Assembly: GCA_964291675.2 (NCBI GenBank)
Contig: OZ219866.1
Location: 2,912,001 to 2,976,000 of the forward strand
Length of the DNA: 64,000 nt
Direction: 5' to 3'
Origin: Alphaproteobacteria bacterium
GTDB lineage: Bacteria; Pseudomonadota; Alphaproteobacteria; MPNO01
Shown: one piece after another, positions 23,631 to 27,359 of the stretch
How the letters are laid out: each line of letters begins with the position of its first letter
Numbering within the stretch: the first letter of the stretch is position 1
Notes under the pieces: model-generated
Database searches by the model: none
What the model was told of the DNA's origin: nothing
Seen by the model: the letters and a program-made list of their open reading frames with translations, nothing else
Made by a program: the position numbers and the translations under genes

Positions 23631-24677
23631 TCATGCCCCGCCGTCGACCAGGCGGCCGGATTCGACCACCGGCACCCCGTCGAGGCTGACCGTGCAGTTC
23701 CGCATCGGCAGGTCGAAATGCCCGAGCGTGTGACGATCGGCGAACTCGTTGGCGCCGGTCGAGTACAGGAAGTTGCCGGCAAACGCCCGGATCTCGGTGC
23801 CGTTGAAGTCGCGCCGGTCGTACATGGTGAGCGCCTCGTAGCGCGCCGCCTCGTTCAGCCCCCAGCCGACATGCGAGGTGGCGTAGGCCTCGCGGTCGCC
23901 CCAGGCGGCCCAGTAGCGCCGGAACAGCTCGGCGTCGGTGCCCTCGCCCTCGACGGCGGTGACGTAGTCGTCCTCGATGGTGAGCCCGACCGGCGCCTCG
24001 AGATAGCGCTTGAAGGTCAGGTTGACGTCGCCGGTATCGAGCACCAGCCGGCCCTGCACCGAGCCCGCGGCGGGGAAGGCGACCACGATCCCGCCCGGCC
24101 AGTGGGCGACGGTCTTGGGACGGTCGCAATAGCCCCACACCCCGGCGCTCGGCGCCCCGTCGAGGGCGACCGTCAGGTCCGAACCGGCGTTCGAGGTCAC
24201 GCGCATCTGCTTCGCCGCGCGGACCCGCTTGACCGCCGCCTTGACGCGGTCGGTGAGCGCCGGGTCGGGCACCAGGCGCTCCAGCGCGTCGGGATGCTCG
24301 TTGCTGACCATCAGCAGCCGCGCGCCGTCGCCGATGATGTCGGGCAGCTCGGGCGCGTGCAGCATCCCTTCCACCGTGAGATCGACCACGAGGGAGCTCG
24401 CCGCCAGCGCCTTGACCGCCGGGCCGAGCCCCTGCAAGGCGGGCGATGCGCCGGTGGAACGCACCGGCACCGGCGCGGTCTGCGGCGGCGAGACGACGGT
24501 GACGTGGAACGGGCGGGCGCCGCGCCTGAGCAGCGCGAGCTCGGCGAGCTGCACGTTGAGCCGCCGCGACTGGGTCTCCGAGAGGATCGCGACTTCCTCG
24601 CCCTTCCCGACCCTGCACAGGCCGAAGACGGTATCGAACGCCGCGATCCAGCGTTCCTCGATTCGGTCGGTGAACAA
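23631..24677 (-). CDS. Peptidase M29-fold protein, NicX (2,5-dihydroxypyridine dioxygenase)-like
   Basis: ILSETQS, SHVGWGLN, GNFLYSTGAN and GHFDLPMRNCTV resemble NicX metal-ligand motifs; TTG start. Confidence 0.7.
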   Translation of the reverse strand: MFTDRIEERWIAAFDTVFGLCRVGKGEEVAILSETQSRRLNVQLAELALLRRGARPFHVTVVSPPQTAPVPVRSTGASPALQGLGPAVKALAASSLVVDLTVEGMLHAPELPDIIGDGARLLMVSNEHPDALERLVPDPALTDRVKAAVKRVRAAKQMRVTSNAGSDLTVALDGAPSAGVWGYCDRPKTVAHWPGGIVVAFPAAGSVQGRLVLDTGDVNLTFKRYLEAPVGLTIEDDYVTAVEGEGTDAELFRRYWAAWGDREAYATSHVGWGLNEAARYEALTMYDRRDFNGTEIRAFAGNFLYSTGANEFADRHTLGHFDLPMRNCTVSLDGVPVVESGRLVDGGA

Positions 24678-24763
24678 TTGCGGTCTCCCCTAACCCTCGC
24701 CCCGCTGTTGTAGCATCCCCGGGGCGGCAATAAAGTCCCGGCGACAGAGGGGGAGAGCCTGCG

Positions 24764-26398
24764 ATGAGCCGACGCCTGACGGTCCACGATCCGCGCGGCA
24801 CGCCGCCCGGGGTCGCCGGAGAGCGGCTTGCGCCGCGGCTCCGGAGCCTCGACGGCAAGGTGGTCTATCTGGTCGATTGCCTGTTCGACAATTCCGACAG
24901 GTTCATGGGCGAGCTGCTCGACTGGTTCGGCGGCAACCTGCCCTCGGTCGATGCCAGGATCGTCAAGCCGCGCGAGAGCTGGGTCGACGATCCCGATATG
25001 CGCAAGCGGATCGAGCACGACGGCGACGGGGCGATCCTCGGGGTCGGGCTGTGAAGCACCTGCAGCCCGACGGTCGTCGGGCTCGCGCTCGACCTCGAAC
25101 GCGCCGGGGTACCCGCCGTCGCGGTCCACACCGAGGTGTTCTCGCAGCTCGTGAAATCCACGGCGCTGGCCAACGGCATGCCGACGGCGCGCCAGGCCTT
25201 CGTCCCCCAGCCGGTCGTCGACCGCACGGCGGCGCAGCTCCGCTCCTATATCGAGGGCGCGGACCCGGTCTCCGGCCGCCCCTTCCTGCGCGAGGTGATC
25301 GAAGGGCTGACCCGCCCGCTCGACGACGCCGATCTGAGCGGGCTCTCCTTCGAACGCGCCACGCCGCGCCTGCTGGAGCCCGACGGCGAGGACAACCTGC
25401 GCGCCTTGTTCGAGGAGAACCGCTGGACCGACCATTTGCCGATCGTCCTGCCGACCGAGGAGCGGGTCGAGGCGATGCTGCGCGGCACCGGCCGCAGCCC
25501 CGACGAGGTCGTGGGCACGCTCAGGCCGACCGCCTATCGCGAGGCCTGGGAATTCACCGTCGAGAAGGTCGCGGTCAACGCCGTCATGGCGGGCGCAAGG
25601 CCCGAATACCTGCCGGTCATCCTCGCGCTGGCTGCGACCGGGCAGACCGCGCGCTCGTCGAGCACCAACTCGTTTGCCGTCATCGGGGTGGTCAACGGGC
25701 CGATCCGCACGGAAATCGGCATGAATGACGGCATCGGCGCGATGGGTCCCTACAACCACGCCAACGCGACGATCGGGCGGGCCTACAACCTCGCCTCGAT
25801 CAACCTGCAAGGCGGCTCGGTCCCGGGCGACACCTATATGGGCTCGGTCGGCAACTGGTACAACTATTCCTCCACCTTCGCCGAGGCCGAGCAGCGCAGC
25901 CCGTGGCAGCCGCTCCACGTCCAGAAGGGATTTGACGCCGAAGAGAGCGCCGCGAGCGTGTTCTTCGGCGCGTGGTACACCCATGCCGGGTACGGACCGC
26001 GCGAGACATGGCAGGAGAATTTCCGGCGCTCGCTCGCCGGCTGCGAGCACCATTTCCCGCCGCTCTTCGTGATGGACCCGATCTGCGCCCGCGGCCTGGT
26101 CGAGCTCGGCTTCGACACCAAGGAGAAGATGATCGACTGGCTCGCCGACAACGCCCGCCTGCCGGCGCGCGAGTACTGGGACAACCAGTGGGTCAAGACC
26201 CTGATCCACCCGCTCGCGGTGGCCGGCGTCGAGCCCTTCGCGACCCGGCTGCGCGCCGCGCCCGAGGAGCCGATCCGCATCTTCGAGCCGTCCGACATCA
26301 ACATCGTCGTCGCCGGCGGCGAGACCCAGGGCGCGTGGAAGATGATCGCCGGGCGCTACAGCCAAGGCGGCACGGTGTCGATCGACGCCTGGCGCTGA
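24764..26398 (+). CDS. Selenoprotein candidate, 544 aa, Sec97 in a U-S-T-C motif (UGSC-like domain fused to a larger C-terminal domain)
   Basis: ORFs 24764-25054 and 25136-26398 are in the same frame, separated only by TGA 25052-25054; readthrough gives GAILGVGL-U-STCSPTVVGLALDLERAGVPAVAV; a SECIS-like hairpin follows. Confidence 0.85.
25052..25087 (+). promoter_or_regulatory. Bacterial SECIS element after the in-frame UGA
   Basis: Stem AGCCCGAC (25064-25071) / GTCGGGCT (25076-25083) with a GGTC loop 17 nt after the UGA; loop starts with G, as in the E. coli fdhF SECIS. Confidence 0.75.
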
Positions 26399-26444
26399 GG
26401 CCGCGCGGGAGGTCGACTCGGCGTGGAGCCCCCGGCGATCCCGC

Positions 26445-26588
26445 TTGACATCCTCTACGGTATGATTGTGTAACTGCACTCAAATGCCCTCTGGCGTCCC
26501 GCGCACCCGTCCGGGAGCGTGGCATGTCAGGCACATAATTTTCGGAATGAGGACCGAGTGCGGGCGGTCGCCCCACTCGGTTTTTTTT
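26445..26588 (+). ncRNA. Candidate small RNA or leader/attenuator (includes a -35-like hexamer and the terminator)
   Basis: AT-rich intergenic island; TTGACA at 26445 (no -10 at canonical spacing); ends in a strong intrinsic terminator; no convincing ORF. Confidence 0.35.
26553..26588 (+). terminator. Rho-independent terminator
   Basis: ACCGAGTG-C-GGGCG-GT-CGCCC-CACTCGGT stem running into a T8 tract (26581-26588). Confidence 0.85.
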
Positions 26589-26723
26589 CGGCACATCAGG
26601 AACATAAGCCCCGCAGGGGACGTATCGAGGGACGCGGCCGAGGTTGAAGGGACCGCCGCGCTTCTATCCGAACCGGACAGGCTCTAACATCGCCGGATCG
26701 GAACCGCTGGGGAGGCACAGGCG

Positions 26724-27359
26724 ATGGCCGTAATCTTCGAAAACGTGCTGCCGCCCAAGACCGGGCTCGCGCTCGAAATCGAAACCGGGCAGCGGCTCCG
26801 CGTGATCGACCTCGAAGGGCAGCAGGTGGTCGACATGGCGTTGTTCAACCGCGACAACCCGCGCGAGAAGCTGTCGACCTCGTATTCGCGCACCCGCTAC
26901 ATCCCGGCGCCCGGGGCGCAATACGTGCCGCGCGACTCGTTGAGCGTCGGCGACACGCTGATGTCGACCTCGTGCCGGCCGATGATGACGATCACCGCCG
27001 ACACGCCCACGCCCAAGGGCGTCCATGACGTGCATAACCGGATGTGCAACCGCTACCTCTACGAGAGCCACGGCGTCGGGCCGAGGGACGGCTGCCACGA
27101 GATCATCGCCGGCGTGATGCAGCCCTACGGCATCGGCTACGACGACATCCCGGACACGATGGATCTGTTCATGAACTACCACCACGACTGCAGCCAGAAG
27201 CGGTGGATCATCGATTTTCCGGTTTCGCAGCCGGGCGACTACATCGAGTTCGAGGCGAGGATGGCGCTGCTCGTCGGCCTCTCGAACTGCCCCATGGACG
27301 TGCTCGCGCCGTGCAACGCCTATAACTGCACAAGGGTGAAGGTCGAGATCCGCGACTGA
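26724..27359 (+). CDS. DUF1989 / urea carboxylase-associated family protein
   Basis: GQRLRVIDLEGQQVVD, HDVHNRMC, GCHE, DLFMN, SQPGDYIEFEA, SNCP and CNAYN motifs. Confidence 0.9.
   Translation: MAVIFENVLPPKTGLALEIETGQRLRVIDLEGQQVVDMALFNRDNPREKLSTSYSRTRYIPAPGAQYVPRDSLSVGDTLMSTSCRPMMTITADTPTPKGVHDVHNRMCNRYLYESHGVGPRDGCHEIIAGVMQPYGIGYDDIPDTMDLFMNYHHDCSQKRWIIDFPVSQPGDYIEFEARMALLVGLSNCPMDVLAPCNAYNCTRVKVEIRD

Follow-up and report, generated by a model that had tools for sequence, protein, structure and literature searches.

A putative U-S-T-C selenoprotein of the UGSC family fused to a domain outside described families

A reading frame crossing one UGA codon

The window analyzed here is a stretch of 64,000 nucleotides (nt) from an alphaproteobacterial genome (NCBI GenBank assembly GCA_964291675.2, contig OZ219866.1, positions 2,912,001 to 2,976,000 of the forward strand). 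It contains what is, judged from sequence, a real selenoprotein gene: a fused-form member of the known UGSC family with the motif U-S-T-C. A single plus-strand frame spans 24764-26398, and its only internal stop is the TGA at 25052-25054, codon 97. This TGA closes an open reading frame (ORF) of 96 amino acids (aa; 24764-25054) that shares its frame with a 420-aa ORF at 25136-26398, and the 27 stop-free codons linking the two translate to STCSPTVVGLALDLERAGVPAVAVHTE. Read through, the frame yields a 544-aa product with the motif U97-S-T-C100, where U is selenocysteine (Sec), set in the peptide GVGL-U-STCSPTVVGLALDLER; the product also contains the segments WTDHLPIVLPT, EKVAVNAVMAGA, and NATIGRA. 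The complete gene (24764..26398, +) comprises 544 codons, including one Sec codon, and a terminal TGA stop, and is supported by its single frame, by full-length ortholog matches, and by a ratio of nonsynonymous to synonymous substitution rates (dN/dS) of 0.12-0.20 inside the genus, rising to as much as 0.38 for more distant orthologs. A Shine-Dalgarno-like GGGGAGAG read from the sequence (24750..24757, +) places a GGAG core 8 nt ahead of ATG 24764, which aligns with the start in 20 of 21 orthologs. The downstream ORF has no such start: its first codon, GTG 25136, is not conserved and is directly abutted by GAGG. Gene callers begin more distant orthologs at an ATG in codon 109, but this codon is CTC, CTT, or TTG in some orthologs and CTC in the window. 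The shared frame, the single TGA, the 27 intervening codons, the Cys three residues after the UGA, and the lack of a convincing downstream start all stand as the original prediction described them.

When 41 related genomes were searched in all six frames, 26 gave an ortholog; 23 of these, the window's own included, match over the full length (1-544), and three are fragmented at contig ends or split. Fifteen of the 41 genomes gave no ortholog with this query. Exactly one TGA occurs in each of the 26 orthologs, always in the same column, even where identity falls to 64-65%, and a 301-genome sample of the class added three more orthologs (61-66% identical), each with the TGA. Because the same single TGA stands at the same column in every ortholog examined, the arrangement is more than chance. 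The family profile PF24696 extends this pattern, with 38 matches in the 41 genomes and one in-frame TGA in all 38. Alignment of three UGSC clades shows that the Sec column and Cys100 are both invariant.

The assignment of codon 97 (25052..25054, +) as a Sec codon draws on this invariant TGA column and on uninterrupted homologs with Cys in its place. We searched 1.84 billion representatives for such homologs and aligned 22 that are full length and uninterrupted. Cys stands at the U column in six, as CSTC (P0123, P0124, P0142), CPGC (P0126), CGSC (P0179), and CGGM (P0181), and two fragments likewise have Cys there (CSTC and CSNC). The other 16 of the 22 have Gly, Met, Thr, Ser, or others at this position. 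Among close relatives, forms with Sec seem to be commoner than those with Cys.

Close behind the Cys100 codon, a hairpin resembling a Sec insertion sequence (SECIS), AGCCCGAC-GGUC-GUCGGGCU (25064..25083, +), begins 12 nt 3′ of the UGA, consists of an 8-bp stem with a GGUC loop, and is found at all 26 ortholog loci. In an alignment of 21 distinct sequences, pairing is kept in 97.6% of cells, and five of the eight pairs never vary. One G-C pair becomes C-G in three sequences through the synonymous changes P102 CCG>CCC and V105 GTC>GTG, a compensatory exchange, and one further pair changes from G-C to G-U. The covariation score was reached by none of 500 shuffles, and partner-slid controls pair only 17-52%. 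Along the gene, synonymous entropy reaches its minimum in the window of codons 97-106. In two paralogous UGSC clades, a hairpin of the clade's own lies 13-16 nt 3′ of the TGA. The window's genome also encodes the Sec machinery, with selD (314), selA (565), selB (456), and tRNA-Sec (76.7 bits) all scoring above curated cut-offs and a selA-selB-tRNA-Sec cluster ~70 kb upstream of the window. The original prediction had named Cys homologs, Sec machinery, and a conserved TGA as its checks, and each of these is now found.

Several observations weigh against Sec decoding. An Rfam scan of 24600-26600 at E ≤ 10 returned no SECIS family, only chance-level matches to U11, Flavivirus_DB, and isrK. The minimum free energy of the 69 nt 3′ of the UGA is no better than that of shuffles (z −0.16), and since this score is not significant, support for the hairpin comes from comparison and not from energy. 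The three sequences with the compensatory pair are kin and so probably record a single evolutionary event. A permutation test of synonymous constraint gave a p of only 0.07 in a codon-biased genome. Finally, contigs 88-99% alike in the metatranscriptome X15 flank the TGA, and none among those listed bridges it; depth in the bin 25054-25112 is 0. These RNA data neither support a single transcript nor speak against one.

The absent Rfam match could also be taken to mean that the TGA is a true stop and that the locus is a pair of genes or a pseudogene or has been misassembled; standard gene callers do split the gene, and its terminal stop is likewise TGA. Comparison of the sequences already contradicts this reading, which we find barely credible. 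The TGA occupies the same column in 29 orthologs that are 61-95% identical, the protein is conserved on both sides of it and over the 27 start-less codons, a Pfam domain and a confident single-domain fold both cross it, and the Cys forms are uninterrupted. In sequencing data, a 1035-nt contig of run X1, which may be the source sample, bridges the TGA with 0 differences. Contigs of X2 and X3 also cover the TGA, and no change at 25052-25054 appears among the differences listed (206 further differences exist). That the gene encodes a real Sec-containing UGSC fusion protein is, on this comparative record, highly probable.

Two public runs contain 84% of the sampled words, and most of the other runs with partial matches are labeled sponge or coral-reef metagenomes. 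In one of these partially matching runs, X3, 61 contigs matched window positions 24700-26450, 51 at 90% identity or more and 10 at less than 90%, which indicates that relatives of the selenoprotein gene occur in that sample.

Gene callers were predicted to split the gene, and database records agree. The best 120 homologs are all 330-438 aa long, most of them 426-438-aa pieces covering ~78-81% of the query. Homologs of 434-436 aa bear the NCBI label "UGSC family (seleno)protein"; they cover only ~80% of the query and are therefore cut at the Sec codon. Many representatives of ~418-476 aa begin at query residues 101-127, as expected of Sec genes cut at the TGA. Public annotation systematically stops at the Sec codon, so that the redox center is missing from most database entries. 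The gene is less hidden in another sense, and the suggestion that it is of an undescribed kind has to be withdrawn. NCBI already names pieces of its homologs, and UGSC proteins have been catalogued as selenoproteins of unknown function since 2007, with 255 Sec and 21 Cys forms in Global Ocean Sampling data, where they are among the most abundant selenoproteins (PMC1976440, PMC2398784, PMC9312934, PMC9402790, PMC5029168, PMC13188914). These papers also place UGSC among the commonest selenoproteins of ocean and freshwater metagenomes, and the 2008 Global Ocean Sampling paper reports a UGSC/"Unknown_1" fusion in its Figure S1A (PMC2398784).

The UGSC domain and its C-terminal partner

The UGSC domain (residues 7-162; 24782..25249, +) is defined by PF24696, AlphaFold2, and VIA-align. 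Its PF24696 match (82 bits, E 7e-23, cut-off 25) spans the TGA, while the NCBIfam equivalog model NF041046 scores 56.3 bits against a cut-off of 125. With the Pfam cut-off exceeded and that of NF041046 missed, the protein is a UGSC family member at the domain level and not an equivalog of the small protein. This profile match and the TGA found in every ortholog bear out the prediction of one UxxC selenoprotein gene of the UGSC family. All 26 orthologs have U-S-T-C and not U-G-S-C, their U and C aligning with those of the family; paralogous fused and small clades have U-G-S-C or U-G-A-C. The window protein thus resembles the UGSC family in its domain over residues 7-162, in the aligned U and C, and in the SECIS-like hairpin close downstream, but differs in its motif and in its size: it is 544 aa long with a C-terminal domain (C-domain) of ~350 aa, whereas the family's U-G-S-C proteins stand alone at ~150-170 aa (profile lengths 147-172).

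AlphaFold2 models the whole chain with a predicted local distance difference test score (pLDDT) of 95.5 and a predicted template modeling score of 0.93. In the model, U97 lies between a strand (89-95) and a helix (100-113), and C100 (codon TGC, 25061..25063, +) sits in the first turn of that helix. The modeled placement of U97 and C100 is typical of redox-active UxxC/CxxC pairs, and C100, invariant over the three UGSC clades, would be the resolving partner in U-S-T-C. Searches of the PDB by sequence, with the protein and with a UGSC-domain profile, returned nothing meaningful. By structure, VIA-align matches residues 28-192 of the model best to generic flavodoxin/CheY-type α/β domains (Z 10.6, 138 residues, root-mean-square deviation (rmsd) 4.4). 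The 50 best matches listed are flavodoxin/CheY/Rossmann-like, with Z of 8.1-10.6 and no thioredoxin among them, though a list of this length does not exclude other folds. The fold predicted here thus appears to differ from the thioredoxin-like fold that the 2008 paper guessed for UGSC (PMC2398784).

The C-domain (residues ~203-544; 25370..26395, +) is recognized by its conserved motifs and its AlphaFold2 model; no Pfam or NCBIfam family matched it, in keeping with the prediction that a U-S-T-C variant is joined here to a large domain of no assigned family. A protein-cluster search with the downstream ORF as translated under table 11 returned only its own kind of cluster. The conserved motifs are WTDxLP(I/V)xxPT, VxxVAxNAVMAG, VNGP, NxANAxIGRA, and AE(N/x)ExSPW, and the nearly invariant residues include D223, P226, P230, T231, T242, G277, S300, N334, R339, G363, E374, and W381. 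Folded alone, residues 196-544 reach a pLDDT of 93.8. Against the PDB, the C-domain gave a best VIA-align Z of 5.6 (75 residues, rmsd 3.1), under the tool's usual background of 7-8, and a best Foldseek E of 2e-3 (probability 0.47). Foldseek searches of the PDB with the whole model and the C-domain model produced nothing convincing, with a best E of 8e-4 over 224 columns at a TM score of 0.2. With C-domain scores below the tool background, the search identified no solved relative. Only at a Foldseek probability of ≤ 0.47 do class I fumarate hydratase and the "Toblerone-fold" hydrolases appear, and they were set aside as relatives.

Prediction of a C-domain homodimer gave an ipSAE of 0.92, compared with 0.00 for the best of three controls, with at least 92% contact agreement between runs and a partner pLDDT of at least 90. 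For calibration, the ipSAE mark was reached by 20 of 30 proteins solved as pairs of one chain and by one of 23 solved as single chains; these figures apply only approximately here, because the C-domain was modeled from an alignment of our own. The predicted interface holds eight of the 28 invariant or near-invariant positions (D223, P226, A276, G277, N334, R339, G363, and G518), and natural tandem duplicates of the C-domain (~710 aa) exist. The C-domain probably acts as a dimer, with the most conserved residues, according to the model, at the subunit interface. Among distant homologs, two tandem C-domains occur in P0219 (1226 aa) and in P0210, P0215, P0231, and P0260 (~710-740 aa). One tandem protein has a hydrophobic, signal-peptide-like N-terminus followed by a C-domain, a UGSC-like domain (C-G-C-G-L-C), a second C-domain, and further C-terminal repeats.

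The UGSC domain and the C-domain are always together in this order of bacteria, fused one way and adjacent the other. The two are linked, as fusions or as neighbors, in 38 of 38 cases in the 41 genomes. Small UGSC selenoprotein genes (U-G-S-C-T-S-C) lie directly downstream of a 500-550-aa C-domain homolog in 12 of 12 instances, and a second fused clade, with the motif C-U-G-S-C, is ~30% identical. Stand-alone C-domain homologs also exist. This arrangement is like the UGSC/Unknown_1 fusion of the 2008 paper, where UGSC is likewise fused to a further domain. Unknown_1 may be this C-domain; one difference is that the paper expected a conserved Cys in fused domains and the C-domain here has none (PMC2398784).

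Genomic neighborhood and a reductase-like neighbor

A gene of ~305 aa with a Pyr_redox_2 domain lies immediately upstream of the selenoprotein gene, on the same strand and abutting its start, in 13 of 23 loci. It is present at 10 of 11 loci from other genera and at three of 12 from the same genus, and in those three it sits between the selenoprotein gene and a divergent NicX-like gene. The product resembles thioredoxin reductase (TrxR): it scores 246-275 bits on the thioredoxin-disulfide reductase model TIGR01292, missing the cut-off of 343, and keeps a C-A-S-C motif. A TrxR-like gene also adjoins four of seven loci of the second fused clade. The arrangement recalls the two-component TrxR/thioredoxin systems, in that a CxxC flavoprotein gene lies immediately upstream of, and abuts, the gene for a U/CxxC protein. 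It differs from them in that sequence does not identify the acceptor domain as a thioredoxin, the TrxR-like protein is under the TIGR01292 cut-off, and the gene has been lost in the window's genome.

The spacing around this site varies within the genus. In the window, 87 nt separate the NicX-like and selenoprotein genes, and three other species have an intact TrxR-like gene there. In L025, L027, and L028, of the same genus, the corresponding gap measures 0.8-1.25 kb and matches nothing TrxR-like at E 1e-5; these gaps could be remnants of a recent TrxR-like loss, or another insert. L026 has no NicX-like match inside the 1.5-kb flank.

The divergent gene of 348 aa is a homolog of the 2,5-dihydroxypyridine dioxygenase NicX (E 6e-56 to 7cn3) and is followed first by an acyl-CoA dehydrogenase gene and then by one for an AMP-forming ligase; downstream of the selenoprotein gene there is a DUF1989 gene. 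The gene identities given for this divergent operon in the original prediction are correct, and the functional link it drew to the selenoprotein is weak. The NicX-like, acyl-CoA dehydrogenase, ligase, and DUF1989 neighbors recur only in the same genus (L050) and at none of eight loci from other genera, which were examined with 8-kb flanks. This absence rules out the neighborhood of NicX-like, acyl-CoA dehydrogenase, ligase, and DUF1989 genes as a functional clue beyond the genus. Other neighbors are recurrent but variable and include TRAP transporters, GMC oxidoreductases, TauD-family dioxygenases, short-chain dehydrogenases/reductases, and luciferase-like monooxygenases.

In one genus, the selenoprotein gene adjoins a gene for a 769-aa protein with Pyr_redox_2 and AIRS/AIRS_C domains (L055:5613-7922, −), a fusion of an NADH-dehydrogenase-like protein with SelD. 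The selD match of the window's genome (G000:C2:1869115-1870017) lies inside a 775-aa open frame, and because of this its SelD is probably of the same fusion type.

Candidate mechanisms and further features of the locus

The best explanation of these observations, and one we consider likely, is one 544-aa Sec gene whose U97/C100 pair relays redox equivalents to a substrate of the C-domain. UGA-97 would be decoded as Sec with the aid of the hairpin 12 nt downstream and of SelA, SelB, SelD, and tRNA-Sec of the same genome, and U97/C100 would cycle between a selenol/thiol and a selenenylsulfide state. Electrons may then pass from NAD(P)H through the FAD/CxxC center of the low-molecular-weight TrxR-like flavoprotein to the U97-C100 selenenylsulfide, the reducing equivalents being spent on a small substrate for which the C-domain dimer provides the binding site. 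In the window's genome, a housekeeping reductase would have to serve as donor because the dedicated TrxR-like gene has been lost. We advance this thioredoxin-reductase-driven mechanism tentatively, as a proposal that stops a little short of probable.

Observations from the neighborhood and from the C-domain tell against such a relay. No TrxR-like gene lies at the locus in the window's genome, where the best match elsewhere is 38% identical, and eight other loci of the genus are likewise without it. In the C-domain alignment, neither Cys nor His is conserved, nor is any other residue of obvious redox character. The same facts would suit a UxxC pair that acts as a redox switch, or as a protective or sensing site, gating a C-domain that is a non-redox enzyme or binding protein. 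Nine of the 12 same-genus loci, the window included, are without the TrxR-like partner and the gene is under purifying selection, and the 16 of 22 homologs with neither Cys nor Sec at the column still keep all the C-domain motifs, which implies that C-domain function does not depend on a redox-active N-domain in the same chain. Sec, however, is costly and typical of catalytic redox sites, and it is kept in 38 of 38 UGSC domains of the 41 genomes. The split systems pair a small UGSC gene with a C-domain homolog in all 12 instances, which suggests that the redox center is needed, and linkage between the TrxR-like and selenoprotein genes is tight across genera. A gating role accordingly strikes us as quite improbable.

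A different catalytic role would make Sec itself the nucleophile, in an aerobic analog of selenoprotein B (GrdB/PrdB) of the glycine/sarcosine/betaine and D-proline reductases. U97 would attack a substrate that the C-domain dimer holds in place, with C100 resolving the selenoether or adduct and the TrxR-like protein recycling the selenenylsulfide. The UGSC domain and GrdB/PrdB (PF07355) share a UxxC(xxC) motif between a hydrophobic strand and a helix. A UGSC profile matched a profile of PrdB-like (PF07355) seleno- and Cys proteins from related genomes with a probability of 75% (E 2.5e-5, 48 columns), Sec on Sec; a wider alignment hit the same region (probability 66%, 73 columns), and the NCBIfam model for GrdF gave a weak match (residues 78-126 on GrdF 331-379, E 0.084). 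Grd and Prd systems use thioredoxin systems, and a thioredoxin-type reductase is present in the neighborhood here. The TRAP, GMC (choline-dehydrogenase-type), and TauD-family neighbors suit the catabolism of small polar metabolites. In addition, the U-G-S-C-T-S-C of small UGSC proteins fits the UxxCxxC that a 2026 review gives for GrdB (PMC13188914).

The likeness is nevertheless limited to one β-α-β unit. Neither a direct scan nor the search for this gene in the 41 genomes gave a PF07355 match at E ≤ 1, and the rest of the protein is unrelated, the C-domain being unlike the remainder of PrdB-like proteins. No pyruvoyl-type proprotein partner (GrdE/PrdA-like) was seen in the neighborhoods scanned, and the neighbors differ between genera. 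The hosts here have high-GC genomes with oxygenase-rich neighborhoods and are not Stickland fermenters. We view a nucleophilic Sec as unlikely. A composite of these ideas would join the UGSC domain, the C-domain dimer, and the TrxR-like flavoprotein into an unrecognized NAD(P)H-driven, selenium-dependent reductase of aerobes, with a Sec unit distantly related to GrdB/PrdB, that reduces or cleaves a small polar metabolite imported by TRAP transporters; this is speculative and, in our estimate, rather improbable.

Related genomes do contain PrdB/GrdB-like (PF07355) genes with an in-frame TGA and the motif V-U-P-x-C-T-R-A (L096, L098, L099, L101), two of which are complete read-throughs of 406 and 411 aa. 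A Cys form, N-C-P-V-C, occurs in two genomes (L097, L100), and no PF07355-type gene was found in the window's own genome. Together these make up another group of selenoprotein genes in this order that annotation splits.

The comparative pattern offers three handles on the UGSC family: an obligate partner domain, a TrxR-like gene that is usually upstream, and a confidently modeled partner domain predicted to dimerize and lacking a clear solved relative. It turns the "unknown function" of UGSC into a testable three-part redox system. The portions available of the UGSC-selenoprotein literature turned up no TrxR-like partner, obligate C-domain pairing, or GrdB/PrdB likeness, and we make no claim that these are unpublished. 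If the reductase reading is true, it would give a function to one of the most abundant orphan selenoprotein families in aquatic metagenomes, and a domain without a solved relative would gain a role.

At the flanks of the gene, a scan of 24500-26800 found no promoter-like site and one minus-strand terminator-like site, at chance level. The selenoprotein and DUF1989 genes are separated by a 326-nt spacer that includes a stretch of lower GC content (26440-26590, +); its Rfam matches are only at chance level, and the matching spacer in L050, of the same genus, is only ~40 nt long. At ~26553-26589 the stretch ends in a hairpin, GACCGAGTG...CACTCGGT, followed by eight T, and it resembles an intrinsic terminator, or else a small RNA or a leader.

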